Of a stretch of 64,000 nt of DNA, positions 25,501 to 38,008 are shown in pieces. This DNA is from Candidatus Omnitrophota bacterium (GTDB taxonomy: Bacteria; Omnitrophota; Gorgyraeia; 1-14-0-20-64-10), in contig JACQCH010000011.1 in assembly GCA_016201735.1 (NCBI GenBank), positions 1,291 to 65,290 on the forward strand, read 5' to 3'. The number at the start of each line of letters is the position of its first letter. Within the stretch, counting starts at the first letter, position 1. The translations under genes and the position numbers were made by a program. The notes beneath the pieces are model-generated. The model was not told where the DNA came from and ran no database searches. It saw only the letters and a program-made list of their open reading frames with translations.

Positions 25501-28500
25501 CTCCAACGGCATCCCAAGAGCTGGGTTTACGGGACGCTGAGGATTATCCCTTCCGCCGGGATGCCAAAGGATCTGAATAATCTGGATAATCCCGTCAACT
25601 GGCAGCCTGCTTATCCAATCAGCTTGAACAGTCTTCAGGTGGCGACCAACGTGGGGCGGCAGGGCACCCTTGAGATGTTGACGCCGGGGATGGTCCGTCC
25701 CGAATTCCGTGAGACGTTCATCCCGGACCTGGAGGCGGCGGGCCGGGCCGCCATGGCGGCGACGGCCAAATACGGGAAGAAATACTGGGACGAGGTATAC
25801 GCGCCGGAGTACATGAAGAAACATGGTGTCGCCCCGCCCGAATTCGACGCGACCGGCGTCCCGTACTGGTGGCCCCGCAACCTCATGCTTGACTTTCTGC
25901 CGGAGCCGGTCTGGGGACGTGACGGCCAAGAGGTGCCTGGTGCCAGGGTGATCGATGTGATTCCCGGAGATCCAAAGAAAGGGACTCAAGCTCGGTTTAC
26001 CCTGCAGGACCCGGAAGGGAACGTCATCGAGAATGGACAAGTTCTCCGGTTCACCTTCTGGTTGTTGGAGCCCAACGTCGGGATCGGTCTCTGGGACCGT
26101 TATTGGAAACGGGAAGAAGTTCACGAAAAGGCCGCCGCCAAGACAGAGAAGCGTCCAGTCGACTGGTCGCGCGTTGGGGTGAGCGACCGGATTGTCTTGA
26201 GCAACTATTTGGCTGTTGGAGAGGCGTTCCTGAAAGCGAAATTTGGGGGTGACTACTTTGGACCGGCCGGGCTGCACCGGGGCGGACCGGATCAGCCTTC
26301 TTCCCCGACTGGAACATCTCCACGGCCGATTGCTCTATGGAATCCTCCTAGCGAGCCCATGTCCCCGCCCGTCGAGGTTCTGTCGGAGCGAGCGGATGAT
26401 AGAGTACAGGAACTCCTTCCGTTTCCCCTGACCCTGGCTGTGGTGGTCGGCAAAGAAACCCTCATGAACCATCACCTTTATCCTTGGATCGTCGGGGCGC
26501 AGGGCCGGGCGGTCAACGTGATCGGTGTCCATGAGGATTGGCTGACTTCCGACGAGCGAGCCGCGCGCTTGATGGCGTTCGACCCTAAGACTCGCCGGTT
26601 GATCGAGTTTTCCGTAGATCAGCCGGTTCCGGTAACCGATGCTTTTATCGTAGAGCTTCCCCAGTCGGATGAAGTGCCTCACCATCAGAGGTTGAGTGAA
26701 CGTCTTAAGAAAGTCGGCATCCACGTGATCAATCTCGCCGGCCCTTCAAAGCAGCGGGCGGATGATAAAAGCTGGCTCCGGCGGCAGATGGACCGTCCGA
26801 TGTCACCGGACCCTGTTGCGGTGCCCCAAAGCATGTTTGTTTCTCGGGGGACTCCAGAGTCGAAGTTTCAGGGGAATCTGTCCTACTTTGCCAAGTGGAG
26901 TCCTTTGGGTTTGGTGATACAGCCTAAGGAAGGAACAACCGAAGGAAAGGGAGTGGAATGGTTCGCTCCGGATGACCGGGCTGGGCAACTCCGTTATCTC
27001 AATCAACTTATCGAACAGCAGGACGCGATGGTAAGCACCTTTCGTGGAAATGTGACGTATCGGGATCGGCCGCTGGTACTTCGGTTCAACGTGGCGGCAG
27101 GTGAAGTCACCTCCGCCTCCGCCGTGGTAGGACCCGAAGGGAGTCGTATCGCTTCTTTGGGCAGGGGCGGTAAAGGTGAAACGGAATTGCTGGGCACGGT
27201 TCTCCAAGGGCTTCAGGATCTTGAGGGAAGACCGGTTCCTGTAACGGCAGAAGATTGGGCTCGACTGGAAACGGCTGCTCGAATCGCCGCAGAAAAAGTG
27301 GATCTGCCGATCATCGGCATTGATCTGGTTCTGGAAAGAGATCCTGCAGGGGTTCTCCGAGGGGTGGTTCTCGAGGCCAACGCCCGGCCCGGTACCTTGA
27401 TTTTCGGTGAGAGAGTGGAATTTCCAGAGGATGGTCCCATCGAAAGCCGCCCCGCCGCGCCGGTCGGCCCCGCTTTCTGGAATTCCATTGGGATCCCGGA
27501 GGCGGAAGTCCCTGTCTCAGCGCAGTCCGCCGGCCTGGAGGAACAGAGGAGCTTTACGATCCGTCAATGGCAGACGATCATATCCAATCCAGACCGGAGC
27601 GGACTCACAGCCCTTGTGGGAAAAATGGTACCGGCCGACCAAGTGGATAAAGAGCTCAAGCATGTAAGAGACCTCGTCGAGCAGGCAGCGGAGAGGAAAG
27701 ATCTATTCAATTTGGAGGACAAGACCTCTCTCGCCTATGCTCCGGGGCGCGTCCGCTTCTACTCGGGCCATACCGATTTCCGTGGGTTGGGAGGGCAGAC
27801 CATTAATGCGGCTGTGCAGCATGGAATCTGGATGCTTGTCCAGTTAACGGAGGATGGCCGGGTGATCGCGGAGAATCTGGATCCCCGATACCGACCTCTT
27901 CGATTTGGCATGACGGACGATGATGCCTTGCCTCCAGAAGGGATTCGGCGGATCCGTCCCGATTGGCTCAACTGGGTTGAGCCGAGGGCGATTTCCGACC
28001 AGTGGGAAGGCCTCTTAAAAGGGACTTTAGCATTTATTCGGACGGAAATTCTAAATTCCGAGAACATCCGGCGCAGTACGCTGGTCGGGAAAGGAGTCCG
28101 CCTCCTAGTTTCGGAAACCGACCTCCCAACAGGGAAGGGCTTCAGCTCTTCTTCGGCGCTGCCGGGAGCGTTCGGCCATGCCTTGAATGCGCTCTTACCG
28201 CTGGAAGCCGGGTTGAGCCCTTCGGATTTGGACCAACTGGATTACGCGAATTACTTGGTGGGAGGTCGAGCGGGCACGGCAGATTTGACAGCGATCAACG
28301 CAGGCCAACTCGGCAAGATCTCAGTGCTCTGGTCTTTCCCGGATCGTTTGGAGGAGGAACCGGTCGGTCTGCCGGAGCGATTCCGTTTCTTCATCGTCGA
28401 CTCCGGTCTGACCAGGCTGGATGATAAGACTCAACCCGTGGAGATCAGAAATTACGCGGCCTACATCAAGTCAATGACCGGAATGGGCTACGCCCTGGGG

Positions 28501-30447
28501 GCCCTTTGGCTTCGGCATTTGGCACGCGCCGATCCGACCCTCGCTCCTCTTGAACAGGTGCTGTTGGCCTCGGGTCCGCCGGCGCAGCCGTTTGGGCTCT
28601 TGCGGGAATTGACGGAGGCTGGAACTTTGATCGGACCCGAGTACGTTTCGATGGTTGGAGGGAAGGATTCGGCTGCTCGGCGGGTTTTTCTTCAACGGTT
28701 AATGAATCGGGTTCCCAACGATTGGACACTAGGGCGACTCTACGAAGAGATCCATGAAGAGGATTTAAGGCCGGAGATGGATCCTTTATTGGCAGGATTT
28801 ACTCCGCTGGGAGCCCATCGTCTTCCCAGTGCACTTGACTCCTTGCGGCTGCAAACTGTTGTCCCATTGCGCCAGATGGTTTCGTATGGGATTCAAGAAG
28901 TGGAGCGGGGCCTGGCTTATGTTAAGGAAGCCCAAGCAGGCGATGCAAGTGGGATCCTCCAACTGATGAGGGACGCCCAGCGTGGAGATCGCGCGGTCTG
29001 GAATTTTCAAGGGGATGGGAGTCTTGCCCTGACTTCTTGGGGAGAGCGGAATCCTGAAGAGGCTTTCTTCCGCAGTCTTCCGGAGATCGATCGAATGATC
29101 GACCAATTCCAGGAGGCTCTTGATGCCCGTTATGGGCCGTTGTCTGTTGCGGGGCGCATTACGGCCGCAGGACTGGGAGGTGCGATTGCGATTGGCACTA
29201 CAGCGGAAGCTTATGAGGAGTCGAAACGTTATTGGAGTCAACAGGGATTGGAGGTGATCGAAGTCCAACCCAGTGGAGGGGCAAGAGCCGTCCATCTGCC
29301 AGCCATGGCTGCTGCCGGGTTGGAGGAAGTTCAAGTGGTTGCCCTTTCGGTGGAGACGACAAAGACCCGATTAAATCAAGTGGCGCAGACACTGGCAAGC
29401 AGCCTGCAATTCCCTGCCCATTTGCTTCAGCCGGCTCTGGATGGGGAATATTACCCGATTTCTGCAGAGGAAATGCTTTTTAAACTCCTTGGGGAGCTGT
29501 GGAGCAACGCCAGAGAACATGTCCCTGTCGAGTTCCAATCCACTGCAAAAATCGAACTCTTGGTTGTCCAAGAACCGATCAATCCCTATCTTCTCCAGAG
29601 GAAGTTGGTTATTCGGTACGCCGATTATAATCCCAAACCCTTTGCCGTTGATATCCGTGGAGCGGTAGAAACACGTGGGGTTACGGAAAAACCATCAGGG
29701 ACTTCTCAAGGGGTTGGCTTGAAGTTGATCCGGGAGATGATCGGAATTCCTAAGGGAGCTTCTATGATGGTTGAATCGACAGATGTCGATGGTGCGCGCA
29801 GGCGTTTTGAGTACCGCCGCTTGGGTGGAACAGTGGAAGAGCTCCCTTCAACTCGTCCCCAAGGGACGGAAATCGTTATTCAGTTGCCGGCAGGTAGCGT
29901 CTCCTCACGCAGTCTCTCGCTGAGAGCGTTGGCCGAACAGATCCGTCATCAACTCTCTCCCCTCTCGGCCGCTGGGCTGGAGGAAAAAGCCGTTGTCAAA
30001 GGCCAGAAGCCGGTGGTTCCGACCCAGGAAATCTCCAAGCTGCTGCAGTTTCCTCCCGGTTCCGAACAGCGCTGGCAGGTGCACATCTTTGATCCGGAGA
30101 ATGCCGATGTCGGTCGGCTGGTCGCTGCCCTGATCCAGGATCCGGTGGTGATCATCGCCAGGGATGAGAAACAGGAAAAGGCCCTTCTCAATTCCGGTTT
30201 TGTCGGGGACGACCGGATCGTAGTGCGTCTGGATCTTCGCAGCAACGACATTGTGAAGGCCCGGGAATTTTCGGCTAATCTTTATCGAGCGCTGTTTTCC
30301 CCGCAGTATTACACGGCTGCTCAGCGGCAGAACCTGGTGGTTTGGTTGGCGAGAATCTTGGAAATCTACAACATTCCGGACTCCATCTTATCTCTGGACG
30401 GTGCTCAAGATAAGCTCAAGTTCTTGGAAGCTCTTCGTGCGGCTTAA
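13600..30447 (+). CDS. giant mosaic multidomain protein 1 (5615 aa; signal peptide, WD40, HEAT-like, UGDH-like, ATP-grasp, GHMP-kinase-like and GHKL ATPase modules separated by a recurring A-A-G-L/M-E-E junction motif)
   Basis: Uninterrupted 16.8-kb ORF, far longer than the longest antisense artefact ORF in this window (2.3 kb), with multiple recognisable domain signatures. The probable true start is ATG 13654 (MKASPRAFVSLLLILTSLTTWTVPSGA, a Sec-type signal peptide). Confidence 0.8.
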   Translation: MRWKNLLLTFKVTNANSPMKASPRAFVSLLLILTSLTTWTVPSGASPEPSRRALRQTQESEQSGSDRQQLTQAITRESNPPSLAAGLEEKFTSYKEFLNDKKEGHQHHLDEREKGKVSPGSMIWHDLLDIQIILPLLGRAAPNWAKKHNADLIGLLQGALIRLTDSYQQYYKQRDPNSQSQWNVRVIQGGNLRSLFEKKLGSATNIKWIHSLGYPGLRVETVRSLLNDQQVDSILFALHGNDPPEVVVFETSSHLIEGAKKGVSVPSYVELGRHLRSLQAKPTGGRALSAYNAARIEDDKHKPPSSAEPRAASTVGRGAGAQGSSSQGPAAPQLSELEKQLNRDLFYPSAGGDLKGSDGFFIFRQRWWRYPYPQREQILKSSGGELWGILQRRFGIGSTYAMQLLEGEEGQRLGQGYAFASKDEVRIFVQDVLPTLQSAAQQLAEKVKGVEENEREGIRSKVYQETVSDILPRIDRNLRDDQELALAIGYLTELIFTGEYKDSRALTGLAEALWQDFQKPWKPAPPESAGPPATPGATQAGLEEEVKVLHGHKGPVRKVAFNTGKRNRGLLASASDGEIRIWDSKGTARRPVFKHEPDEQVLVVAFRRTGSAVLVVGNRSAVSWDVGNNMRFPTRIFYPPELRIDADSLHPDSIALSPGRTSMVIAGKEGAMAVIQNLDPDRKLKGLDKPMGILGQLQPEKGAVLSVAVKPEDPEKVSRGRYMDGWVAALGTSTGTVELWKLLELADPFHNVQIQSRRFLVLQGNSGKIISLAFDPSSKGKILAAGDDQGRIRIWNAMRRSFQEIPLEEKKEILALTFSPDGRILASAGEAGTIQFWDAVTGWPLGFRRPNENQPTKILSLAFNLDGTQVAAGRDDGTILIAGVPVPPVPAAGMEEREKLEWQQRIGQAFKGWEARGLIRSADPFVGGLLQTRREVQNEINELSKQPEYTLAYKSYRPFRQARLGFLQTLSFLLEALGQDPSKSSARIIKRSEPTLEKTGLVWFRLGFPIDGREFQAVLRFHVDDTEYPYLSINIRGQTQAFKIKTMPDKTKQIKIPTPYLQFYTDTSRARWRKNIYYLPGCFNNLPEGAEEPEVLEAFRNFQKGLIEAIQKLPLAPPAAGMEEPLDSDGAFWRLEQYAQKEEVEIRPASFWFDKAGRQMHRRVLELRRSKDPHALPELLKIMDDPSVLDDVRVAAARALIGIPLLDGSDIETALDAVERLSRHNDHPPRPAPALALYDPGSPLSQRRSRFRRQLIGVRNHLISLLQQVPPGPGLSPDQIFERLSPLLQRPPVRVLAVGVVGVAAGRNGILSDETGQVYDHFISLSPVNRLLLLSSLDATQLHEGVLNRLPNWARKGAIPIYVNEEGSSKGRLFLQWVEKERIGPSMALFMDDDPESFRVFPNSWPGTLVYLGRYDPELSQLRPNVIQISRPDEGRPFNRVEIARIAALVEFAKQRFAGSATLQAAASGNVSGQRPVEFLLYQARLTGPAAEDWSPLKAGASAPLGAGLEEAFVTGPAKGFTTKVERVIETGIPVAKRKVGRLLPMKTVWDLAGATMTGGANGLEDLSAEDSSSANRVMEWANDGLRWLNVRSSIPVIQRVWKRLQEEGRRVLPVEMRANHAMTLDFTDEEPAVRLDTTVASELNGREFNAGRPLLYAVGLFHEAAMAAGFTPREAIHLTLGLYQGMTAQERQNLQAILRSIYIDHGNTWALFLQDASDSKSADLNPTEFSGMDTLTLEERLNEEPSSSARGQITAIRNYRDKWVSWLMGQLLIDLPYDRIAFRQAMEEGNVDARRRAAYEVIRDYDRDVEQGNAERMSTVVREEWLPEDLPYPVLVGGRESRAFGNQAQLFANSAYVLKTAEIVHAAQLLLEVARGKELLAELEKIANAAPISAQEELRKAVGRVKELLAHLGPGADRIRQLVFGPGKVVASTQYAGALQQLRENLEIFHSQASKVMEQAKDQVVAASTEGVSRRLPQENLTVGFRETQQRLTEFADKGGRIADAMDQLWKAILQGESYAAAYSVLMQRPSPTGSEKFKANELEEKPEQEEVLRKLTRLGGQNLYMSPSYDWVAEATDIIEAAPLFIYERTIEVDEHTVTVFEVDQEGLEQTVRQMADYWALNIDKTMDSEHLALAREIVVRTNPALMAAAAELMKQGLPEEAAHRRAFQQMEDSGKREVLLNRVALVAAWIASEFDRRIEEVERFTEEQWRKQHFIDRVEALRALLLGDSREPIYTGFCKECISRSQSKAETLRTETDRLQGIVLAQRRPLPAFHMLTTEAPGLVEGFIQVVLEEEMALRNLLRGEGRRLGLDLEQEVKDGMKKYADRIQILGWKVIREFGYEPIVEQYEAQGFSRERAIQQVIGDHLSLQEELARLAVLVEMAEVEAGPGYILDPEDPDHPLVTGRIGKPGRSPDDNYTKSWTHHFEQEAFEQVWQRNKLDPDLAQRITQLRQDGRTEVEAIDGAIEESPLYSQEIKDTVRWLARRRALENLDERHPELHLQDRVRRWYRDHTALARTTARRETVSAHSLHPKMLDPRYAYCSGTIQETKDGRLRPTGGRKRYHLIYANSRVNLGKGEKESVEVLPQWVGVTDPLAAAHGKRFYELINFNPQIRTIVETENLKVSENQWMAMVRAIRNVQAYFVDRLGRGDIEDLAYQFDQRGGLTAAALKQGESYQAGPTAGYCIPKDILFKLFVATHQDAAKLSQIGVPKHLHRGVIQMAVELAAAQENFETVMEWESWAALQLLSQKALEKRFGLDGAKSLGKHFGRYISVTGGIPVFHVTKIRQLLELTGVPSPLLARLQDLHSALWSNWAERKLTLPAEQVNRSVVFTMTRQIPEAAKEAKALNPTAGIVDPDQLRVHFYGTYKGDENYPSQPDVRFAWIMRAVMILSGFGKEVALSLDEEGQILARLAWEGFRPDSNDPEDQKVRRYLAKELAGVPDFELPRDQAIVNRLKEAFPVHTTVGDITITVVPGVSSEDLLGFSSETKELLGNVATQTQELLQSKGISPAQMKADAQQHWTFPQEWVPLNDLSPEEQRGLKEAVAGKIHPLVLRLRGPGDKFLEDLQSQDVVVFSVTHPEIMALDPAHLRDLMLEGHPNSALTALDFVAQGRHRVWFDRDIMNWYAAGRGVDENGQPILNWEERDSKGRQAVYRAFGFGTDDYRPLLGTGLREEVVRQELRAREMFKGFEQVAGASEEDLPRAVQAFQARFGEWFERNQMVTEADLAIQYEQQMLSNRRWKPRDEAVREALVDITTGLPAEKFGKDHWLATGGMFLLNGAPQEQIDRVLAIVHKAQQRMTAPAAAGLEESNPRVALLIKPRLTAAAIRFAERKGEMFSVKASESDAVKAVQRRKGLALEATRLAALKARQEGFNSVEPITEAAQIPQALVSAREQMDQMLAELQTRTSASSIHQHVGRVMGTTVQVLRRLAEELISDEKERERVQDQVKKLCQGREIDLKTWNIFGGSYEDHGILARLFELAGPSRRDEVTAAMELLYLSSVLERTASFLVLPAEEVDERLLLRALAGFFAETIDDHFYEYNPWAFDPKRGLTFKDFYDELGALKPERAEELYQVSWEHHRTLYRYVRHLILTKTEAKNLSIGDQYDLFGQIRLGQSVAQDELIAQAIGAGAPGRYERLWRAYNQTREMVFIRNDGFTLPMVFEKMDPEDPEILDVRHRVNHAFLAPVGRTHYSRALMEAGQLGENLFITRDGEMATPAGAKGPVLQIRDAQFWLTEWQYRQALIRCRGMNPADADRQIAEDQRTGRLTPKGIRAAARFTRPVTIGSVVPMHHHYLEPELVAAGYPATDKSPVLYKVTYDKSIYPEIYNPAERTGVHLPDEIDWYREDTEAAASAPEAKQAIAVALRPFARKHGIIVAKGSAESGARNFKRFDFVDEQGKQFTQQEFEKRLAEAAEFIYQVSTGQNVTIQRAIVVTPIAWMDPKAVQEFVERQIREWAVPVNLQRHPKSWVYGTLRIIPSAGMPKDLNNLDNPVNWQPAYPISLNSLQVATNVGRQGTLEMLTPGMVRPEFRETFIPDLEAAGRAAMAATAKYGKKYWDEVYAPEYMKKHGVAPPEFDATGVPYWWPRNLMLDFLPEPVWGRDGQEVPGARVIDVIPGDPKKGTQARFTLQDPEGNVIENGQVLRFTFWLLEPNVGIGLWDRYWKREEVHEKAAAKTEKRPVDWSRVGVSDRIVLSNYLAVGEAFLKAKFGGDYFGPAGLHRGGPDQPSSPTGTSPRPIALWNPPSEPMSPPVEVLSERADDRVQELLPFPLTLAVVVGKETLMNHHLYPWIVGAQGRAVNVIGVHEDWLTSDERAARLMAFDPKTRRLIEFSVDQPVPVTDAFIVELPQSDEVPHHQRLSERLKKVGIHVINLAGPSKQRADDKSWLRRQMDRPMSPDPVAVPQSMFVSRGTPESKFQGNLSYFAKWSPLGLVIQPKEGTTEGKGVEWFAPDDRAGQLRYLNQLIEQQDAMVSTFRGNVTYRDRPLVLRFNVAAGEVTSASAVVGPEGSRIASLGRGGKGETELLGTVLQGLQDLEGRPVPVTAEDWARLETAARIAAEKVDLPIIGIDLVLERDPAGVLRGVVLEANARPGTLIFGERVEFPEDGPIESRPAAPVGPAFWNSIGIPEAEVPVSAQSAGLEEQRSFTIRQWQTIISNPDRSGLTALVGKMVPADQVDKELKHVRDLVEQAAERKDLFNLEDKTSLAYAPGRVRFYSGHTDFRGLGGQTINAAVQHGIWMLVQLTEDGRVIAENLDPRYRPLRFGMTDDDALPPEGIRRIRPDWLNWVEPRAISDQWEGLLKGTLAFIRTEILNSENIRRSTLVGKGVRLLVSETDLPTGKGFSSSSALPGAFGHALNALLPLEAGLSPSDLDQLDYANYLVGGRAGTADLTAINAGQLGKISVLWSFPDRLEEEPVGLPERFRFFIVDSGLTRLDDKTQPVEIRNYAAYIKSMTGMGYALGALWLRHLARADPTLAPLEQVLLASGPPAQPFGLLRELTEAGTLIGPEYVSMVGGKDSAARRVFLQRLMNRVPNDWTLGRLYEEIHEEDLRPEMDPLLAGFTPLGAHRLPSALDSLRLQTVVPLRQMVSYGIQEVERGLAYVKEAQAGDASGILQLMRDAQRGDRAVWNFQGDGSLALTSWGERNPEEAFFRSLPEIDRMIDQFQEALDARYGPLSVAGRITAAGLGGAIAIGTTAEAYEESKRYWSQQGLEVIEVQPSGGARAVHLPAMAAAGLEEVQVVALSVETTKTRLNQVAQTLASSLQFPAHLLQPALDGEYYPISAEEMLFKLLGELWSNAREHVPVEFQSTAKIELLVVQEPINPYLLQRKLVIRYADYNPKPFAVDIRGAVETRGVTEKPSGTSQGVGLKLIREMIGIPKGASMMVESTDVDGARRRFEYRRLGGTVEELPSTRPQGTEIVIQLPAGSVSSRSLSLRALAEQIRHQLSPLSAAGLEEKAVVKGQKPVVPTQEISKLLQFPPGSEQRWQVHIFDPENADVGRLVAALIQDPVVIIARDEKQEKALLNSGFVGDDRIVVRLDLRSNDIVKAREFSANLYRALFSPQYYTAAQRQNLVVWLARILEIYNIPDSILSLDGAQDKLKFLEALRAA
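15232..16260 (+). other. WD40 beta-propeller module of giant protein 1
   Basis: Repeated WD-like units (LHGHKGPVRKVAF…SASDGEIRIWD; ILAAGDDQGRIRIWNA; ILASAGEAGTIQFWDAVTG; QVAAGRDDGTILIAG). The module is bounded by junction motifs at 15217 and 16267. Confidence 0.7.
21652..21675 (+). other. UDP-glucose/GDP-mannose dehydrogenase-like catalytic Cys motif (AGYCIPKD) in giant protein 1
   Basis: Matches the GGYC(L/I)PKD active-site signature of the NDP-sugar dehydrogenase family. Confidence 0.5.
26700..27430 (+). other. RimK/GshB-like ATP-grasp ligase module in giant protein 1
   Basis: …SRIASLGRGGKGE… and IGIDLVLERDPAGVLRGVVLEANARPG resemble the RimK R-x-N-x-x-x-GG and C-terminal (E/V)NxxPG ATP-grasp motifs. 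Confidence 0.55.
28126..28161 (+). other. GHMP-kinase ATP-binding motif (PTGKGFSSSSAL) in giant protein 1
   Basis: Matches the Px(G/S)xGLGSSAA signature of GHMP kinases (galacto-/mevalonate-/homoserine kinases). Confidence 0.55.
29460..29760 (+). other. GHKL (histidine-kinase-like) ATPase module in giant protein 1
   Basis: N-box-like LGELWSNAREH and G2-box-like SQGVGLKLIREM. The module lies between the junction motifs at 29311 and 29968. Confidence 0.55.
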
Positions 30448-30515
30448 TATGAAGAAGTGGTTTGGGTTAGCGGCAATGCACAGGTTAAAGCGGAGAGATC
30501 GGCGAGACGGAGGAA

Positions 30516-30626
30516 TTAATGAGCGCGTTTTTCCCGCTTACGGGTTCGCCGATCTGCCCAGCCCAGAAAGAGGACAATTAGAATCAGGATTCCTGCGGCT
30601 GCGTAAACTCCCAGAAGCCATTCCAT
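30516..30626 (-). CDS. possible small membrane protein (about 36 aa; MEWLLGVYAAAGILILIVLFLGWADRRTRKREKRAH)
   Basis: Hand-translated minus-strand ORF in the spacer between the giant genes. GGAGAA RBS 8 nt upstream. One TM helix plus a basic tail. Too short for the ORF track. Confidence 0.2.
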   Translation of the reverse strand: MEWLLGVYAAAGILILIVLFLGWADRRTRKREKRAH

Positions 30627-30640
30627 CTATTAGGTTCTCC

Positions 30641-30859
30641 TTATTGGTCGATCCACAGAACCGCTGCAATCAGGGCTACATACATTATCAACCCCAACAA
30701 CAAGATTCGCAACCGGAATGTCTGTCCCAAGACATTGCTCAGCACCCAGGCAACCAAGATGGCGTTGCCCGCATTCAGAAGAGCTTTCGCCAGATTCTCC
30801 TGTTGTTTGCGAGTGAGTCTTACGCTCATAGGGTCATTGTGCATGGTATGAATATACAA
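30641..30859 (-). CDS. possible small membrane protein (72 aa, C-terminal TM helix)
   Basis: ORF in the lower-GC inter-giant spacer. C-terminal hydrophobic segment LLLGLIMYVALIAAVLW. Divergent from giant ORF 2. Confidence 0.3.
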   Translation of the reverse strand: MYIHTMHNDPMSVRLTRKQQENLAKALLNAGNAILVAWVLSNVLGQTFRLRILLLGLIMYVALIAAVLWIDQ

Positions 30860-30904
30860 AATTTTATCAAAAATATCAATAACAAAAAGGGAGAGAAAAT
30901 TTTC

Positions 30905-33900
30905 ATGCGAAACGGTTCATTGAAGTCGTTGGTATCGCTGGTTCTTATCGTCGCATCATTCACAAGCTGGTCGACCCCGTCGTTTGCCCTGCGGCAGAGC
31001 CAGAGAGCCGACAGCAAAAGCGGGCTGGAGGAAATCCGTGTGGCCTTGGGGGATGGGCAGAATCCGCCCACTTGGGCGTGGTCAGAGAACGGCGGCCCCA
31101 TCTCTCTGCAGCAGCGAGTGAGCTTGATCTTGGAGGCGAACAGGAACACGAAAGGTGCTTTCGATTTGGGGCGGGCTGTCGCGGTGGCGGGTCACGGGAA
31201 GAAATCAAAACTCTCCAAGCGCTTTGAGCCGCTCTCCGACTATCTTGAGTCGGTAATTCCGGTCGAACTGCGAGAACTGGTTCTGGAAGGGCAGATGAAA
31301 GATGATCCGATCCTGCATCAGTCATCCCTGCTGGCGCAAGATCCCCAAGCCGCTTCCATCCTGGATTGGGTGAAAAGGAACGTTCGGTTCGTCGTGGTTT
31401 CGGATCAAGGGAACGGCTACCTGGCCGCTCAAGGGATCGCCGGTAGCCCGGAGCACACCGCGGTGATGGCCTACGCCGGCTGGCACGCCTATCCCCATTG
31501 GGAGAAAGGGATGGAGCCGGAGATGAAGGAAGCGATCCGGCGCGGCATGCGGGCCCGCCAGCAGAATCAGTCTCTGCGGCCGGATGAACTGCCAGGTCCT
31601 CCCTCGGTCTACTTGAGCGAAACCCAGATCCGGCAGTTCATGGCGGCCAAAGAGGAAGGCCGCCAAGTGCTGGCGATCAAACTGGCGCACGAGATCAAGG
31701 ACATCCTGCGCCAAGGGCGGCACGAGGAGGAAACGCCGGCCTTGACGCGCCAGGTCAACGAGTTCCTTAGCCGGAACATGCAGGCGGTCCAGCAGGTGAA
31801 GGAGCAGCAGGCGGCAGCCGCCCGTCTCCGGGAGCAACAGAAGCTGCACAAGTTCCACGCCACCGTGGATCTGACGGCGGTGGTGAAGACGAATCTACTG
31901 TCCGCTCATGCGCGACAGGAGATCGTCCGGGCGGTGGAGGATTTTCTTCACGCCCAACAGAAGAATGGAACTATCTTCGGGTTCAACGTCTTTCTCTTTG
32001 ACGGGGGAAAGATGCTGGTGGTGGATTTTGATTATCGGTTGACGGGTGAGTTAGAGAGGAATCCCAGGAAGCTGGCCGGCTATGCGGTGGAGCGTGCCCT
32101 GGATCAAGCGGCGAGACTGAATCTTTTGGAGCCGGATGGAATTCCGAATCTTCAGTCTCCCGAAACACAGAGACTGCTGAAGTTTGAATCCGGCGAGCAG
32201 CAGTTGACCCAGCGGGCCGCCGAGCCGATCGTGACCGTGCAGGCGATCGGCCTTGGAATGGGGGCTTTCAACCGGGCGATCTGGCATCTGCTCGTCGGGG
32301 ATGTCGGCCACCTGCAGGCGATCGCCGGCGACCAGGGCTTCCGGGTAAGGGTAGCCAACCTGAACGACATCCGTGAAGGGAAGGAACCGAGGTACCGGAT
32401 CTACGACTTCGATACTCCCGGCCTCAGCAAAGAGCAGCTCGAGCAGATCATTCAGCAGATTGAGCGAAATGAAATAACGGAAGAGGACCTCCCAGGAAAA
32501 TTCAGCCAGAATCTCCACCAGCTTCACCGGTTGGTCGGCGCGATGGACGAGTACGCCATCGAGGGAGTCTACCCGCTGCCGGGCAGCCGGTTCGCCTACA
32601 AAGTCGGCAAAGAAACCGTCACCCTCACCGACGAGCCGATCATCAAGGTGCACCTACATCCAAACCCGGTGGCGGAGTTCCGGGCCCAGTCCGGTGGTTG
32701 GGCGACCGGTTCCTATCAGAAGGTTTTGACCCTGCCGTACTTCGCCCCCAACGCCGACCAGACCCGCTGGGCCGGCTGGATTCCGGTTTCAAACAGGGAA
32801 GCGGAAGATTTGACCTCCCTCGATAAGGAAGGATGGCCCAGGCAGGAGATGGGTTTCGTGACCGCCTGGGGCGGGTCGCAGGACCGGGGCGGAACCGGGC
32901 GAGGCGAACCGCCGGTGACCGATGTCTTCGGCAAAAACGATCAGACGGAGATCAACCGCAAGGAGGACATGGATTTCCTCTTGGGGGTGTGGAAGGACAT
33001 AGGAGATTTTGAACCGCGGCTGACGGCAGCGGAAGCGGCCCGGCGCGCGAAGGAAGCGGCGGAGGCCTTCCCCTCCGTGGAGAAGGTACCCGCCGGCGTT
33101 CCTCCAGTCGGCGCATGGCATCCGATCCCGAACTTGAAGAAGGGTGAAGCAGACCCTGTGGTTGAATCCCTCCACGGTGAAGGCAAGCTCACCTGGAGTT
33201 TCTTCAAGGCCGACATCGGCGGCAAGGCGGGGCACGACCAGGTGCTCCAGACGCACATGGCGGCCGCCCGGGCCAAACTGGCGGAGGCCAAAGAAAAGGG
33301 ACTCATCAAGGATTACACCGTCTACTTCGTGGGAGACGATATGCAGTTGGGCATTCTCCACGACAAAGGGGTCCACAACGACGAGATTCACGCCATGGCC
33401 TGGCAGGTTTTTTGCTTCGGTTACTGGGTCTCCTGGAATTTGGGGCTGGAGCCGTATGGCCACGGGCAGGACATCCGGATCGCGGAGCTGTTTTCCAAAT
33501 ATCCGATTGAACAACACGCAAAGCTGACCCGAAGGGATGTGGAACTGTTGAAGACCGACTTTCAACAGGTAGCGACAGGCTGGGGAAACGTCCCGGGTCC
33601 GCTTAAGGCCAATGCCCAATTGGTTTCGACGTCGGCGCTGGACAAGTGGGATTTGCTCGATGCGGCTTTGAAGAAATGGGAGAGTGGGACCACCGCCGGG
33701 ACCATCGTGACCGAAGCGGTGCCGGTGGGCAATGTGACCGGGATGGGCATTGGCTGGGTTGAATCGGACGGCCAGGACGAAGAGCCGCTGATGATCTTCG
33801 GTCTGGATAAGTCGGGTGCCGGTGGTTTCAATCCCCGGCTGGTCAGGACGCTTTATAAGGCGCTGAATGCCGGGGATCTCTCCCGCGACGATCTGGTGGA

Positions 33901-36900
33901 GATGTGGGACGTCGAGGAGCAGAAGCGTGTCTTCCTCCGGATGGGGGACCACGAAGCCCAGATCCGGGGAATGGCCGCCCAGGTGAACAAGTACAACTTC
34001 AAGCGGATCATCGAAGCTAAGACAGGAAAGATTCTCGGCTGGCTCTCCTCTGAGATCCTGTCCAAGATCGGCCACGCATATGTAGGCAAGGACGACCCGA
34101 TCCTCGCTCTTCGGCAGAGGATCGGCCGCCACATGGCCGAGACGTTTAAGGATGTCCGGACCGCTCCGACACCCCAATTGGGAGACGAAGCAGGTTCGCA
34201 CAATCTCGCCAACGTCTTCCGAGCATGGTGGCAGTCGTTCCCGGGCGAGAAGAGCAATCCTGTCGGTGTGGCGATTACCTTCCTCGTTCGGAACGGCAGG
34301 ATTGAGTCAGAGGATGAGGGCTCCAAGCCAAAATACGACGAAGGTCGGAGGAGGACGGAGAGATTCAACCGAATCTTCTCCGCTGTCCAGGGGGAGTTCT
34401 CTCCGCTGGTGGCCAACCGGAAACAGATCGAGCCGTCCTATTCCCGGGCGCAGATGCTCGACAAGGCGGACCAGGCTCCGACCGCCTGGGTGGATCGGCC
34501 CTCCGTGAACGCCGGTTTGGAGGAGAATATCCCCCCTGTCTGGGTTGCGCGTCCAGAGGTGCTCGCTGGTTTTGAGCCAAAGGGAATCTTTTTCGACTTC
34601 GACGACACCCTCTGGCCCGGTTTCCCGCGGGATCTGGAGGCGGGATCGATCGCTTCCTGGGTGACGGGCCGGCCGAATCCCAGCCCGGAGATGGTGAAGC
34701 AGGTGAAAGATTTCCTCATTGAGACGAACGGAATGAGCTGGCGCGAGCGCAAGGAACAGTGGCGCTGGAACCTGCCGGGGGATCATGAGGCCTTCATCGA
34801 GCGGTTGCAAACTCAGCTCCGGCAGTTCATCCATGAGCACCATCTCACCGACCCTCGCTTCTTGACGCCGGGGGCTTCCTCACTTCTTGAAGCCCTCAAG
34901 GAAGCCGGAATTCAAATGTCGATCGTGACCGGTGGAGGCGCCGATTCCCGCCGACAGTACGCCGACGGACTGGGCATCGGCGGATTCTTCAAGCAGATCT
35001 ACGGCGGCGGCGAGAAGGTCGCCACCATCCGCCAAGGGATGAGGGCGTGGGGCTTTCAGCCGAACCAGGTGGCCATGGTCGGCGACGGGATTCCGGACAT
35101 CCGAGCGGCATTGCAGAATGGCATCTTGGCTGTGGGATTCGCGACCACCCCGGAACATCGCCGGCGGCTCATCGATGCCGGCGCCCAGGTGGTCATCTAC
35201 CGGGATTTTACCGCCTTGAAATCGATCTTGGGAGTTTTGAATATCCGTCAACGGCCTGCCGCCGGGCTGGAGGAATGGAGAGGGGGTCCTTTTCTGCGCC
35301 TGTATGTGCGGAGCGGTGATAATCGTACGCAGGGAAACGATAATCGCGCTGTGATTTATAACTTCAACCCATCCACGGGGGACCAGGTTTGGGTCAGTTT
35401 GTTAAATCGCCGCCGCCGTATGACGACCCTGGGAGCCCATTCCACTAACCCTCTGGGCGAGAGGGTTCCAGAGGATGTGGTAATCTTCCGTGGAGAGGTG
35501 ATGAGAAAGATCCTCGAAGCAGCGATGAAGAACGGGGATCTCGACCCCAAATTGTTCGAGGAGATTTGGCCGCGGGGCAGCAGGTCCCTGGAGTTCCGCA
35601 ACCCTAAGACGTTGGAGGCGCTGAACAGCCCTTGGATGAAGGAATCATTGGCTTTTCGAAAGCAGGCCGTATTAAAGAGGAAGCAAACCCATGAACCGAA
35701 GGGAGGCCTCGTCGCCACCTATCAACCTGGGGAGTGGGTCATTTTCTTTGACACCGCTGGGGACAACCAAACCCTCTGGCATCCCTTCGCAGAAGCGAGG
35801 ATCTTTCCCAGTAGCGATGATTCTGCCGCGCTCTCCTTCTCCGCGTTGAAGAATGTTCGCATTGACCGTGAAAGTAGGTATCCGTCCGCCGCCGGGCTGG
35901 AGGAGGAATATCGTGGACCTACGAGGGATGGGGCGGTCATTCTGAATCCGGATGTCCAAGGAGCGTGGCCGCCGCCGGCAGACACAGTGCGGTCCTTCAT
36001 TGCTGCAAGGCCCGGCAGCCAATTCCTGCTGACGGTCTTCAGAGGACCTTCCGGGAACCAAACGTGGGATCAAAAACAGTTTTACCTTGTCCGGCTAGAG
36101 AAAGGGAAGAAAGTCTCCTTTCTCCGCCCGGATTCCATTGAGTTAGCGGACTTCAGGAAACCGGAGAAGATCGTCCCGGTGCAGAGGGTGGTGGCTCTGC
36201 CGGATCGTGTGCGTGTCCGACCCGGTGCTCAGTGGGAGACAGCTTCCCAGCCAAGTGAAGGGGTTCGCATCGAGGATTTGCAGATGTCTATTTCTGTCGA
36301 ACCGGGAAAGGATGGTCTGCGCTTCCAGTTCGAGCAGAAGGCCAGGGATCCAGAGGCGGTCCCCCCGCTTTATTTGATCTTTCCATTGGACGCAGTGGAT
36401 GCTTGGCAAACGACGCTTCAGGCATATCGGAGTGTGAGTTTTGAGGTTCTGGCGGCATTGCGGAACCGGCCCGCTAAAAGTTTCCAGATCGACAAGGATT
36501 GGGTCGGGCAGAGTCTGCCTTCGGGTCAGGTGATTGATCAGGCGATTGCTCTGTTGAATGAGGATCCGACCCGTGTTCTTCAACTGCAATTTGGCGCTCG
36601 AGATCTATTCATCATCAAGTCCGTCGGCGACGGCTCCCGCGCCTGGATGGATGCCCAGATCGACTCCCTCAAGCAGCAGCTTACCGCCGGGTTGGAGGAA
36701 TCGAAGTTAAAACCGGAAGATATTCATATCCTGATTGTGGACGATGATCTTTCCATCCAAGGCGTGATTAATGCGGTGGTAACTTTATTGGTGAAGTTGC
36801 AAGGAATTGACGTTAGCCATATTCATGTGGCAGGAACGGTGGATGAAGCGCTGACTCTCATTGAGCAATTTAAACCTCAGTTTGCTTCCCTAGACATGAA

Positions 36901-38008
36901 TCTGAAGGATCCGGAGGGCCGGACCGGGATTGACATTGCCCGGAAATTGAAAGAGACGGACCCCTCTGCCCGGGCGATTTTGGTGGCTTTATTAGAGACA
37001 GACCAACAGATAGGCCGGAAGGATCAGGAATTGGCGCCCGGGGGCCTGCTTGCCGGGTTTGTCGAGAAGCCGAATATCATCCCGCCCCTCACGATGTTTG
37101 TGAATCGATTCCTGAAGGATCGAGTCGGATCCCCCGCCGCCGAGGAAGCGGCAGAGCCCGAAGAGATCCGGCAGGCTCGGGTCGAGGTAGATTTCGCCCG
37201 CACGCTTTTGGAGAAGACCTCCCAGGGGGCGGTGGATCAGGCCGAGCTGGCGCAGTATCAGGCTCGCCTCATGAGCGCTAAGAACAAACTTGCCTCCCTG
37301 CTCCGGCAGCAGAAGGAGGCGAAGGCCGGCGCCGAGGAGAAGAAAGAGGAAGCGCCGTCGCAGTTGGTGGTGGAGGCCCGGGCGGCGGTGAGGACCGCGG
37401 GAATCCGGCTTGCGGAGGCCACGCGGTCATACGTTTACACGACATGGCGAGACGTTGAGACGGCCGAGCTGGATCTGCGGCGGGCGGAGGTTTGGCAGAG
37501 TCACATCACACCTAACCCGATACCGCCGGAAACTTCCGCCGGCATGGAGGAGGTTCGTGCGGACCGGGTGAAGGTGACTCCGGGGGCGAAGCCGCAACTG
37601 GGCCGGGTTTTCGTGCAGGTTCGGGATGAGGCGGTTCAACCGTGGATTCATCTCTTGGGCTCCGAACCGATCTGGCTGTCGGACACCCTCAGAGGGGCTT
37701 CGGAGGATCTGCTCCATCAGTATCTAGGAGCAAACGCTGGGGAGGCCGACATTGCCTTCGTCGTTCCTTCGGTGATTCGAGAGGCTCCGGACCAGTGGAA
37801 CCGGCAGTTCCAGGGATACCGATTGCCTGCGGTGGAAGCGCCGTTGGGATTAATTCAAAAGTTGCAGGCGGATGAGTTGGCGGCGCTCTTGGGCCACTTG
37901 CAGCGGGTCCATGCGGAGCGAGGTTTCATGGGAGGCGTGATCCATCTGCTGGAGATCAGCGTGGAAGAACATGAAGGAGAACGGACTCTCCTGATTCGAT
38001 CCGCGTAG
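30905..38008 (+). CDS. giant mosaic multidomain protein 2 (about 2368 aa; signal peptide, FBP aldolase/phosphatase-like, HAD phosphatase and REC receiver modules separated by the same A-G-L/M-E-E junction motif)
   Basis: ATG 30905 is preceded by an AT-rich region and a GGGAGAG RBS and encodes a signal peptide (MRNGSLKSLVSLVLIVASFTSWSTPSFA). The ORF-track start at 30401 is read-through of the spacer. Six junction motifs and several domain signatures are present. Confidence 0.75.
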   Translation: MRNGSLKSLVSLVLIVASFTSWSTPSFALRQSQRADSKSGLEEIRVALGDGQNPPTWAWSENGGPISLQQRVSLILEANRNTKGAFDLGRAVAVAGHGKKSKLSKRFEPLSDYLESVIPVELRELVLEGQMKDDPILHQSSLLAQDPQAASILDWVKRNVRFVVVSDQGNGYLAAQGIAGSPEHTAVMAYAGWHAYPHWEKGMEPEMKEAIRRGMRARQQNQSLRPDELPGPPSVYLSETQIRQFMAAKEEGRQVLAIKLAHEIKDILRQGRHEEETPALTRQVNEFLSRNMQAVQQVKEQQAAAARLREQQKLHKFHATVDLTAVVKTNLLSAHARQEIVRAVEDFLHAQQKNGTIFGFNVFLFDGGKMLVVDFDYRLTGELERNPRKLAGYAVERALDQAARLNLLEPDGIPNLQSPETQRLLKFESGEQQLTQRAAEPIVTVQAIGLGMGAFNRAIWHLLVGDVGHLQAIAGDQGFRVRVANLNDIREGKEPRYRIYDFDTPGLSKEQLEQIIQQIERNEITEEDLPGKFSQNLHQLHRLVGAMDEYAIEGVYPLPGSRFAYKVGKETVTLTDEPIIKVHLHPNPVAEFRAQSGGWATGSYQKVLTLPYFAPNADQTRWAGWIPVSNREAEDLTSLDKEGWPRQEMGFVTAWGGSQDRGGTGRGEPPVTDVFGKNDQTEINRKEDMDFLLGVWKDIGDFEPRLTAAEAARRAKEAAEAFPSVEKVPAGVPPVGAWHPIPNLKKGEADPVVESLHGEGKLTWSFFKADIGGKAGHDQVLQTHMAAARAKLAEAKEKGLIKDYTVYFVGDDMQLGILHDKGVHNDEIHAMAWQVFCFGYWVSWNLGLEPYGHGQDIRIAELFSKYPIEQHAKLTRRDVELLKTDFQQVATGWGNVPGPLKANAQLVSTSALDKWDLLDAALKKWESGTTAGTIVTEAVPVGNVTGMGIGWVESDGQDEEPLMIFGLDKSGAGGFNPRLVRTLYKALNAGDLSRDDLVEMWDVEEQKRVFLRMGDHEAQIRGMAAQVNKYNFKRIIEAKTGKILGWLSSEILSKIGHAYVGKDDPILALRQRIGRHMAETFKDVRTAPTPQLGDEAGSHNLANVFRAWWQSFPGEKSNPVGVAITFLVRNGRIESEDEGSKPKYDEGRRRTERFNRIFSAVQGEFSPLVANRKQIEPSYSRAQMLDKADQAPTAWVDRPSVNAGLEENIPPVWVARPEVLAGFEPKGIFFDFDDTLWPGFPRDLEAGSIASWVTGRPNPSPEMVKQVKDFLIETNGMSWRERKEQWRWNLPGDHEAFIERLQTQLRQFIHEHHLTDPRFLTPGASSLLEALKEAGIQMSIVTGGGADSRRQYADGLGIGGFFKQIYGGGEKVATIRQGMRAWGFQPNQVAMVGDGIPDIRAALQNGILAVGFATTPEHRRRLIDAGAQVVIYRDFTALKSILGVLNIRQRPAAGLEEWRGGPFLRLYVRSGDNRTQGNDNRAVIYNFNPSTGDQVWVSLLNRRRRMTTLGAHSTNPLGERVPEDVVIFRGEVMRKILEAAMKNGDLDPKLFEEIWPRGSRSLEFRNPKTLEALNSPWMKESLAFRKQAVLKRKQTHEPKGGLVATYQPGEWVIFFDTAGDNQTLWHPFAEARIFPSSDDSAALSFSALKNVRIDRESRYPSAAGLEEEYRGPTRDGAVILNPDVQGAWPPPADTVRSFIAARPGSQFLLTVFRGPSGNQTWDQKQFYLVRLEKGKKVSFLRPDSIELADFRKPEKIVPVQRVVALPDRVRVRPGAQWETASQPSEGVRIEDLQMSISVEPGKDGLRFQFEQKARDPEAVPPLYLIFPLDAVDAWQTTLQAYRSVSFEVLAALRNRPAKSFQIDKDWVGQSLPSGQVIDQAIALLNEDPTRVLQLQFGARDLFIIKSVGDGSRAWMDAQIDSLKQQLTAGLEESKLKPEDIHILIVDDDLSIQGVINAVVTLLVKLQGIDVSHIHVAGTVDEALTLIEQFKPQFASLDMNLKDPEGRTGIDIARKLKETDPSARAILVALLETDQQIGRKDQELAPGGLLAGFVEKPNIIPPLTMFVNRFLKDRVGSPAAEEAAEPEEIRQARVEVDFARTLLEKTSQGAVDQAELAQYQARLMSAKNKLASLLRQQKEAKAGAEEKKEEAPSQLVVEARAAVRTAGIRLAEATRSYVYTTWRDVETAELDLRRAEVWQSHITPNPIPPETSAGMEEVRADRVKVTPGAKPQLGRVFVQVRDEAVQPWIHLLGSEPIWLSDTLRGASEDLLHQYLGANAGEADIAFVVPSVIREAPDQWNRQFQGYRLPAVEAPLGLIQKLQADELAALLGHLQRVHAERGFMGGVIHLLEISVEEHEGERTLLIRSA
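33180..34440 (+). other. fructose-1,6-bisphosphate aldolase/phosphatase (FBPA/P, archaeal-type class V FBPase)-like domain in giant protein 2
   Basis: Collinear resemblance to FBPA/P as recalled from memory: SFFKADIGGKAGH (vs SVIKADIGSLAGH), MAAARAKLAEAKEKGLIKDY, VGDDMQLGILHDKG, HAMAWQVF, YVGKDDPILALRQ (vs YVGKDDPVMIVRLQ), VRNGRI. Confidence 0.55.
34570..35200 (+). other. HAD-superfamily phosphatase module in giant protein 2
   Basis: HAD motif I FFDFDDTLW and motif IV MVGDGIPDIRAA. Bounded by junction motifs at 34508 and 35258. Confidence 0.65.
36700..37100 (+). other. response-regulator receiver (REC) module in giant protein 2
   Basis: ILIVDDD acidic pocket, phospho-acceptor context FASLDMNL, and a conserved Lys in GFVEKP. 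Begins 4 residues after the junction motif at 36686. Confidence 0.65.

Follow-up and report, generated by a model that had tools for sequence, protein, structure and literature searches.

A degenerate and an intact fructose-1,6-bisphosphate aldolase/phosphatase domain in tandem within a multi-module protein of Candidatus Omnitrophota with a predicted signal peptide

Why should an enzyme of central metabolism lie inside a long protein that begins with a predicted signal peptide? The question is raised by gp2, a gene in a 64,000-nucleotide stretch of DNA from a Candidatus Omnitrophota bacterium (GenBank assembly GCA_016201735.1, contig JACQCH010000011.1, positions 1,291 to 65,290 of the forward strand; this whole stretch, hereafter the window, provides the nucleotide numbering used below). 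The enzyme is fructose-1,6-bisphosphate aldolase/phosphatase (FBPA/P), regarded as an ancestral gluconeogenic enzyme, a homo-oligomer of ~370-amino-acid (aa) chains in archaea and a few bacteria. In gp2 it takes the form of a tandem, in which a degenerate copy (copy 1) is followed by a copy with a conserved active site (copy 2). All long open reading frames (ORFs) near this region are on the plus strand and two of them are very large, 13600-30447, which encodes the neighbouring protein gp1, and 30401-38008. A GTG at 30401, in frame with gp2, would add 168 implausible residues. The ATG at 30905, behind a GGGAGAG ribosome-binding site, is a plausible start. From this codon the ORF encodes 2367 aa, not the 2368 aa given in a preliminary description of the locus. 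Database comparison identified the product as NCBI MBI3615283.1, 'MAG: fructose 1,6-bisphosphatase [Candidatus Omnitrophica bacterium]' (MAG, metagenome-assembled genome), listed on a contig of 65.5 kb. The peptides quoted in the preliminary description all fall in plus-strand frame 2, with KLTWSFFKADIGG at aa 761 (window 33185), HAMAWQVF at aa 829, YVGKDDPILALRQ at aa 1059 (window 34079) and VRNGRI at aa 1128 (34286).

Copy 2 had been proposed to be homologous to, and collinear with, the bifunctional fructose 1,6-bisphosphate (FBP) aldolase/phosphatase family, and profile, sequence and structural comparisons bore this out. PF01950 (FBPase_3) matched with E=2.4e-48 and 165.6 bits (cutoff 25). 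The match, which extends from position 1 to position 346 of the 361-position profile, is split into a first part at aa 761-857 (profile 1-95) and a second at aa 935-1177 (profile 95-346). Against the PDB, phmmer returned only the FBPA/P enzymes of Thermoproteus neutrophilus and Sulfolobus tokodaii (3t2b, 3r1m and 1umg) at E ~1e-27 to 1e-26, far above chance, while a profile built from copy 2 and its relatives aligned with the canonical FBPA/P alignment at an hhalign probability of 100% (E=1.1e-59, 286 columns). An AlphaFold2 (AF2) model of aa 754-1203 (pLDDT 76, pTM 0.79) had seven PDB FBPA/P entries as its only significant Foldseek matches (E 5e-22 to 2e-19, probability 1.00, target-normalised TM 0.68-0.78). 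The stretches modelled with low confidence, aa 937-946, 1049-1062, 1093-1098 and 1164-1185, are active-site loops, which we take to be the mobile elements of the canonical enzyme. Like the archaeal enzymes (PF01950; 1UMG/3R1M from S. tokodaii and 3T2B-G from T. neutrophilus), gp2 displays the FBPA/P fold in its models (TM 0.7-0.84), collinear sequence and the same set of Lys, Tyr and Mg-ligand residues, but at ~22-31% identity and with an 81-aa insertion. Judged by its predicted fold and active site, copy 2 is a divergent member of the class V FBPase/FBPA/P family rather than a near-orthologue of the canonical enzymes. The insertion, which has no Pfam match, follows directly after the Q95-D96 motif, is modelled by AF2 as helices (model residues 102-174) and recurs in a shorter version in every tandem-type relative aligned. 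With regard to method, word-indexed protein searches gave one match with the domain alone and 22, mostly canonical archaeal enzymes, with an alignment as the query, whereas an exhaustive HMMER search recovered the family that these searches missed. Alignment by hmmalign to the canonical hidden Markov model (HMM) misplaced residues near the insertion and left many gaps, and MAFFT with hhalign mapping was used instead.

The residues of the active site were numbered after the 3t2b chain in sequence alignments. The Schiff-base lysine, the tyrosine and the Asp/His/Gln metal ligands that typify the family are all present in copy 2. The correspondences are K768 (K9), D770 (D11), H777 (H18), D811 (D52), D812 (D53), Y851 (Y91), Q855 (Q95), D856 (D96), G942 (G104), N943 (N105), D968 (D132), K969 (K133), Y1059 (Y229), K1062 (K232), D1063 (D233), D1064 (D234), S1098 (S268) and H1099 (H269), and Y1179 in the C-terminal EPSY stands at about the Y348 position. 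In the canonical enzyme Lys232 reportedly forms the Schiff base and Tyr229 is likewise said to have a role in catalysis; PDB entry 3t2g is described as a 'Y229F variant'. The positions that we presume to be Mg2+ ligands (Asp11, His18, Asp52, Asp53, Gln95, Asp132, Asp233 and Asp234) are all occupied in gp2, as are those of Lys133, Tyr91 and Tyr348; these ligand and residue roles are taken as given, and invariance was computed from the alignments. The catalytic positions proved invariant in alignments of 7, 20 and 22 relatives with ~21-36% identity, the YVGKDDP-loop residues in 20-22 tandem-family sequences, and the ligand positions in canonical and tandem alignments alike; ~25 catalytic and active-site residues of copy 2 are unchanged across these divergent relatives. 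Such invariance at 21-36% identity points to selection on catalysis, and copy 2 is most probably catalytically competent. That the FBPA/P fold has instead been repurposed as a non-catalytic scaffold of a surface protein, for binding sugar phosphates or for oligomerisation, is very improbable, as binding alone would not preserve the Schiff-base Lys and the Tyr together with every Mg ligand, even though copy 1 demonstrates that the fold can persist without catalysis, the score of copy 2 is below the NCBIfam equivalog cutoff and a large insertion sits beside its active site.

Evidence for copy 1 came from the relatives of gp2. When module 1 (aa 41-1203) served as the query of an exhaustive HMMER search, 210 proteins were recovered, many of which are 800-6400 aa long and match gp2 over aa ~340-1000, far upstream of the annotated domain. 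In almost all of these long relatives the canonical FBPA/P HMM made two tandem matches (for example 287-648, E=6e-32, and 684-1091 in P0011; 342-702, E=2e-30, and 722-1147 in P0027), and P0004 contains two such tandem pairs. Copy 1 of gp2 is itself too degenerate for this HMM (E=0.6), which does detect the equivalent region of a 55%-identical relative, P0003 (E=3.8e-6). As BLASTP of the N-terminal 720 aa of gp2 against copy 2 was also non-significant (E=0.06), the duplication is visible only via homologues and profiles. A copy-1 alignment (42 sequences, with gp2 aa 300-760 as master) matched canonical FBPA/P in hhalign at 99.9% (E=7.4e-36, 281 columns), spanning residues 2-312 of the T. neutrophilus enzyme, and a jackhmmer profile of copy 1 matched gp2 copy 2 collinearly. 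Copy 1 has lost K9, D11, H18, D52, Q95, N105, D132, K133 and S268; D234 is mostly replaced by Asn, and the whole Y229-D233 loop, K232 included, is deleted. These losses identify copy 1 as a predicted pseudo-enzyme.

What the two copies have kept is complementary. Of 61 positions that are near-invariant in canonical enzymes, copy 2 retains 34 and copy 1 retains 15, and the latter include residues that copy 2 has given up. R121 is present in 98% of copy-1 sequences (R437 in gp2) and is unaligned in copy 2, while E124 (E440) is kept by 81% of copy 1 and 10% of copy 2, R240 (R593) by 86% and 5%, and A247 (A600) by 88% and 0%, respectively. The copy 2 of gp2 still has R240 (R1070), although this residue is mostly lost from copy 2 across the tandem family. 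An AF2 model of the tandem (aa 300-1203, 904 aa) forms a single confident body (pLDDT 82, pTM 0.83), for which Foldseek matched only FBPA/P structures (1UMG, TM 0.84). From these observations we infer that the two halves would pair as a pseudo-heterodimer that has a single active site, copy 1 providing what the neighbouring subunit provides in the homo-oligomer. The archaeal enzymes are homo-oligomers of identical ~370-aa chains, whereas the intact domain of gp2 follows a dead duplicate in a 2367-aa protein; it is thus internal to a long chain rather than a free-standing subunit of ~360-400 aa. The assignment to archaeal-type FBPA/P in the preliminary description therefore holds for the family but not for the ~370-aa archaeal form, as the unit consists of a degenerate and an intact copy and extends over ~870 aa. 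A fused dead-plus-live pair would be a clean natural case of a homo-oligomeric enzyme becoming a pseudo-heterodimer.

The tandem is not confined to gp2. Scanning one genome per species for the signature GGEYxGKDDP gave 556 confirmed loci, the best 38 of which span the whole of copy 2 with its insertion at 28-32% identity. In these best 38 loci the gene typically encodes 845-911 aa and has copy 1 at its very start (e.g. 'MTREEFL...TTITILSFKLLRWMGG'), and the MAGs concerned are labelled Acidobacteriota, Ca. Binatia, Deltaproteobacteria/Thermodesulfobacteriota, Poribacteria, Latescibacterota, Aminicenantes, Anaerolineae, Gemmataceae and Nitrospinota. Such free-standing proteins (e.g. P0005, P0009 and loci L001-L037) resemble gp2 in having a dead copy 1, a live copy 2, the insertion and GGEYxGKDDP, but lack the signal peptide, the additional modules and the AGLEE motif described below. 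Identity between gp2 and P0005 or P0009 is 27-28% over the tandem unit, and gp2 conforms to the same arrangement, a dead copy preceding an intact copy with the insertion after Q95/D96. A signal-peptide-like N-terminus was found in 2 of 33 free-standing tandem proteins versus 49 of 53 among relatives of more than 1000 aa; the named sources of the long signal-peptide forms are Omnitrophica/Omnitrophota, together with one contig each labelled Elusimicrobia and Planctomycetia. The tandem is thus a long form of FBPA/P that is widespread in bacteria and has no signal peptide, and its fusion behind a signal peptide is lineage-specific. A literature search found no paper on the tandem form. The observation and interpretation of the preliminary description are accordingly correct with two refinements, namely that the domain is a tandem and that its embedding is not unique to gp2, as at least about 50 long signal-peptide proteins hold the same unit.

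Two other arrangements were seen among the relatives. P0069, P0070, P0094, P0100, P0107 and P0131 form a separate group of 800-1170 aa, mostly with a signal-peptide-like N-terminus, in which a single FBPA/P domain of near-canonical type (285-315 bits) comes after ~350-520 aa of unknown sequence; this group represents a second, independent way to embed FBPA/P. P0083 (386 aa) is a homologue of canonical length (E=4e-100 to 3t2b) that has ESAGVDDP in place of the YVGKDDP loop, with both the Tyr and the Schiff-base Lys replaced, and could be a phosphatase-only or inactive variant.

The N-terminus of gp2 reads MRNGSLK-SLVSLVLIVASF-TSWSTPSFA|LRQ, comprising a basic n-region, a hydrophobic core of ~12 residues, too short to score as a transmembrane (TM) helix, and S-F-A at positions -3 to -1. 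The signal peptide of gp1 is of the same design and probably starts at Met19, and neither protein has another TM segment. By the rules of such sequences gp1 and gp2 are predicted to be cleaved, exported and soluble, in keeping with the earlier placement of the FBPA/P domain within a putative signal-peptide-bearing multi-module protein. The c-region TW.xPS.A (T/S-W-x-x-P-S-x-A) and the ALRQ that follows are common to gp1, gp2, P0008, P0021 and the L038 proteins, while the ordinary exported proteins of the window, two with lipoboxes and one with a plain signal peptide, have neither. The shared c-region and ALRQ could serve as a dedicated signal, either for sorting or as part of a pro-peptide, or may simply reflect paralogy. 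The first AGLEE occurs 10-50 residues after ALRQ (window 30905-31030 and 13654-13760; in L038 from 329, 8435 and 13120).

The sequence [AS]G[LM]EE recurs along both proteins. There are 15 copies in gp1 and gp2 together versus 0.075 expected (5000 shuffles, maximum 2), and none in any other frame of the 64-kb window. In gp2 the motif lies at aa 39, 1203, 1453, 1663, 1928 and 2212, dividing the protein into modules of 1163, 250, 210, 265, 284 and 155 aa; the first of these, aa 41-1203 between junction motifs, has the length that was previously reported. Pro/Ala/Ser-rich stretches precede the motif, which falls at domain borders. In the close relatives P0003, P0008 and P0021 it has the same role with different downstream modules, and it bounds modules that are shuffled between relatives; one 18-kb contig encodes three adjacent proteins with a signal peptide and AGLEE. 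At the motif the synonymous sites vary and Leu alternates with Met, indicating that the constraint is on the peptide and that the motif is neither an RNA signal nor an internal ribosome-binding site. An internal Shine-Dalgarno sequence with translational restart (AGLEE encodes the Shine-Dalgarno-like GAGGAG) was ruled out by this synonymous variation, by the L/M exchange and by the lack of a consistent start codon. It is hardly credible that the giant ORF is a mis-assembly or a set of run-together genes. The contig is metagenome-assembled and AGLEE encodes a GGAG-rich sequence, as such an artefact would have it, but the frame stays open over 7.1 kb, dozens of independent assemblies show the same architecture, and the motif varies at synonymous sites and has no consistent start codon after it. 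The more distant relatives P0033 (4731 aa) and P0044 (6393 aa; locus L081 10001-29182) are without AGLEE and contain 15 copies each of [GAS]ARL, mostly GARLA or AARLA, at intervals of 76-1552 aa, which bracket the tandem FBPA/P unit. From its placement, [GAS]ARL appears to be another lineage's counterpart of the AGLEE junction, and it is possible that AGLEE and GARLA are lineage-specific processing sites of polyproteins. A literature search on 'AGLEE' returned nothing relevant.

Short linear motifs at the borders of independent modules are known from other large exported proteins. MARTX toxins are cut after Leu between effector domains, and the P97/P102 adhesins of Mycoplasma hyopneumoniae are cut at S/T-X-F|X-D/E. 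gp2 resembles these proteins in the recurrence of such a motif, but it differs from them in that no cysteine-protease or autoprocessing domain was detected, the cargo consists of central-metabolism enzymes and cleavage at AGLEE is putative. AGLEE and GARLA are concrete cut-site candidates for the long-standing question of whether the giant proteins of Omnitrophota are processed.

The modules joined to FBPA/P bear on where the protein acts. The preliminary description had named HAD phosphatase and REC modules as companions. The HAD assignment stands (aa 1226-1410), and the module contains FDFDDT, SIVTGG and VGDGIPD (DxDxT and GDGxxD); the REC-like domain is weaker, falling below the Pfam cutoff (Table 1), and its DDD and LDMN acidic residues are present. 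Modules 3, 4 and 6 of gp2 have no Pfam match, and the N-terminal region of module 1 is conserved in P0003, P0007 and P0020. By source name, signal-peptide features and its FBPA/P, HAD and REC content, gp2 belongs with the long multi-enzyme proteins of Omnitrophota. Pfam annotation of 22 long relatives found FBPase_3 in all 22, TIM in six, GAPDH, PGM/PMM and Transaldolase/FSA in two each, and PGK, PEPCK, PGI, NDP-sugar transferase, 6-phosphogluconolactonase-like, adenylate kinase and CsrA in one each. P0029 (4971 aa) has the module order methyltransferase, tandem FBPA/P, TAL, PGI, PGM, and P0010 (3555 aa) the order NTP-transferase, TAL, PGM, tandem FBPA/P; the enzymes of these two proteins are steps from triose phosphate via hexose phosphates to NDP-sugar.

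It is possible, although we are inclined to doubt it, that these proteins form a cytoplasmic or membrane-tethered metabolon, in which the N-terminal segment is non-exporting or only an anchor and FBPA/P is an ordinary gluconeogenic enzyme scaffolded for the synthesis of NDP-sugar, glycogen or polysaccharide. The partners are classic cytoplasmic, cofactor-dependent enzymes, they are in pathway order in P0029, and genes for a GH57 branching enzyme and a DUF4912 protein are found just downstream of gp2. In E. coli, Sec export is disfavoured when the hydrophobic core is immediately followed by a basic residue, and such a residue is conserved here (ALRQ, AHR, YLRP). Against this, the short core (~12 residues) and the AxA-like c-region are characteristic of a cleaved signal peptide and not of an anchor, there is no other TM segment, and the basic n-region predicts an N-in, C-out orientation; moreover, the free-standing homologues have no signal peptide, which suggests that the signal was acquired along with the fusion. 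A 2023 preprint on giant genes of Omnitrophota describes FBPase-, TIM-, PGI-, PGM- and aldolase-like domains as 'predicted to be in an extracellular region' and cautions that the extracellular call may be wrong (10.1101/2023.11.21.568195). A 2026 preprint lists HAD, PGM and REC among the recurrent modules of long Omnitrophota proteins and reads the sugar-metabolism modules as cytoplasmic-face (10.64898/2026.06.07.730766). The doubt voiced in the former and the placement in the latter are consistent with a cytoplasmic scaffold.

Signal peptides on 49 of the 53 fused relatives invite the converse proposal, that the modules are exported metabolic effectors which act on the sugar phosphates of a host or prey, either harvesting hexoses (FBPA/P followed by HAD) or draining glycolysis. 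A host-dependent or predatory life and large secreted proteins have been proposed for Omnitrophota, the residues of the active sites are preserved and the HAD phosphatase module adjoins the FBPA/P unit. This support is entirely circumstantial, the window contains no gene for a secretion system and no toxin-like domain, and a REC-like domain makes little sense extracellularly. We know of no precedent for an exported metabolic effector of this type and consider the proposal unlikely. Equally doubtful, in our judgement, is its broader form, in which Omnitrophota would place an upper-gluconeogenesis and sugar-activation set (PEPCK, PGK, GAPDH, TIM, tandem FBPA/P, PGI, PGM, NDP-sugar transferase and HAD phosphatase) in Sec-exported polyproteins that are cut at motifs specific to each lineage (AGLEE here, GARLA in another) and act away from the cytoplasm of the producer, in or on a host or prey cell. 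If true, the polyprotein reading would make these proteins secreted metabolic effectors instead of housekeeping enzymes.

Given the homology, fold, residue conservation, tandem architecture, distribution and motif statistics established above, the explanation that we favour, and hold to be somewhat more likely than not, is that gp2 contains a genuine and most probably competent FBPA/P in tandem form, within an exported modular protein in which AGLEE marks processing sites. A single active site would convert triose phosphates, or FBP, irreversibly to fructose 6-phosphate, using a Schiff base at Lys1062 and a Mg cluster. The ~870-aa free-standing unit would have become one module of a Sec-signal-peptide protein alongside the HAD phosphatase/mutase and the REC-like domain, and the Pro/Ala-rich linkers ending in AGLEE would most likely mark proteolytic sites that release the modules. 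Several points weigh against this explanation. The catalytic activity, pseudo-dimer, export and cleavage that it invokes are ones we infer. FBP, triose phosphates, the kinase partner of a REC domain and the NTP/NAD cofactors of the relatives are cytoplasmic, which fits poorly with a Sec signal, and no protease candidate for AGLEE cleavage was recognised in the 64-kb window. Copy 2 scored 149.4 bits against the NCBIfam equivalog NF041126, missing the cutoff of 520, as a divergent subfamily split by an insertion; canonical R107 and R266 are replaced by T and A, and from the divergent score and these replacements the substrate specificity of copy 2 could differ. Either signal-peptide logic fails in Omnitrophota, or metabolic enzymes are exported by these nanobacteria, which are uncultured and possibly host-dependent; either answer bears on their lifestyle.

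The closest known systems also include the Omnitrophota giants of the 2023 and 2026 preprints, which share with gp2 the phylum, signal peptides and FBPase, TIM, PGI, PGM, aldolase, HAD and REC modules, and for which cleavage into several products has been proposed ('Archaeovorins', West-Roberts et al. 2023, 10.1101/2023.11.21.568195; 2026 preprint, 10.64898/2026.06.07.730766). Archaeovorins are defined by a length of at least 30,000 aa, many TM helices, a C39/S8 peptidase and a SecA-like domain, none of which is found in gp2; at 5.6 k and 2.4 k aa, gp1 and gp2 are far below this size and have neither TM helices nor C39/S8 peptidase domains. The available portions of the preprints make no mention of the tandem nature of the FBPase or of the AGLEE/GARLA motifs. 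As the NCBI annotation of gp2 and the preprint remark on FBPase-like domains in Omnitrophota giants are already known, the core finding is not new. We think that what is new or undescribed comprises the dead-plus-live tandem with complementary residue retention, its wide free-standing distribution in bacteria, the consistent occurrence of the fused form together with signal peptides and other gluconeogenic enzymes, and the AGLEE/GARLA motifs.

Table 1. Features of gp1 and gp2 in window coordinates.
Feature	Position	Strand	Basis
gp2 coding sequence, 2367-aa multi-module protein	30905..38008	+	ATG downstream of GGGAGAG; 100% identical database entry
Predicted Sec-type signal peptide of gp2, MRNGSLKSLVSLVLIVASFTSWSTPSFA, predicted cleavage before LRQ	30905..30988	+	read from sequence
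N-terminal region of module 1 (aa 41-312), no recognised family	31025..31840	+	no Pfam match at E<=1
FBPA/P copy 1, degenerate, predicted catalytically dead duplicate (aa ~313-745)	31841..33139	+	hhalign, jackhmmer, residue losses
FBPA/P copy 2, active site intact (aa 761-1180)	33185..34444	+	Pfam, phmmer, AF2 model, Foldseek, hhalign
81-aa helical insertion in copy 2 (aa 858-938), between Q95-D96 and G104-N105 motifs	33476..33718	+	gap between Pfam stretches
YVGKDDP loop, Tyr229/Schiff-base Lys232/Asp233/Asp234 = Y1059, K1062, D1063, D1064	34079..34099	+	aligned to 3t2b 229-235
AGLEE ending module 1	34511..34525	+	pattern match
gp2 junction motifs	31019, 34511, 35261, 35891, 36686, 37538 (AGMEE)	+	pattern match
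Module 2, HAD-superfamily phosphatase/phosphomutase (aa 1204-1453)	34514..35263	+	Pfam Hydrolase E=1e-17, HAD_2 E=2.8e-12
REC-like domain in module 5 (aa 1942-2035)	36728..37009	+	Response_reg 23.5-27.5 bits, below cutoff 30.2
gp1, 5615-aa neighbour of the same kind (predicted signal peptide, nine AG[LM]EE)	13600..30447	+	ORF, Pfam, motif
gp1 junction motifs, nine AG[LM]EE	13852, 15217, 16273, 16957, 18118, 23527, 27529, 29314, 29971	+	pattern match

The neighbouring gp1 contains a WD40 propeller (aa 545-890) and a GHMP/galactokinase-like module (~aa 4700-4900), as well as two modules, of 1803 and 1334 aa, without a recognisable family. The 457-bp gap between gp1 and gp2 (30448-30904) has no convincing ORF, and no terminator-like hairpin, plus-strand promoter-like site or Rfam match was found in it. 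Upstream, the window encodes tig, clpP, serC, serA, purA and an H+-PPase. Downstream are an MNT/HepT pair, lipoproteins with PG-binding and OmpA domains, and DUF4912 with a GH57 branching enzyme, followed by cdsA, dxr, rseP, ispG, proS, nusA, infB and a class-I (Trp/Tyr-type) tRNA synthetase; the window is thus ordinary chromosome. There is no stand-alone FBPase or aldolase in its 64 kb, and a scan of the same 64 kb at the Rfam gathering threshold matched no family, tRNAs included.

Directly downstream of gp2, genes for a nucleotidyltransferase (Polbeta/MNT) and a HepT ribonuclease have overlapping coordinates (38042-38922, plus strand) and constitute a toxin-antitoxin pair. The DUF4912 gene and then that of the GH57-type 1,4-alpha-glucan branching enzyme (Glyco_hydro_57 and BE_C) occupy 40709-42756 on the plus strand, placing a glycogen-related pair 3 kb downstream of the sugar-phosphate megaproteins. 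Across the window (1-64000) nearly all genes are on the plus strand and the GC skew is positive throughout.

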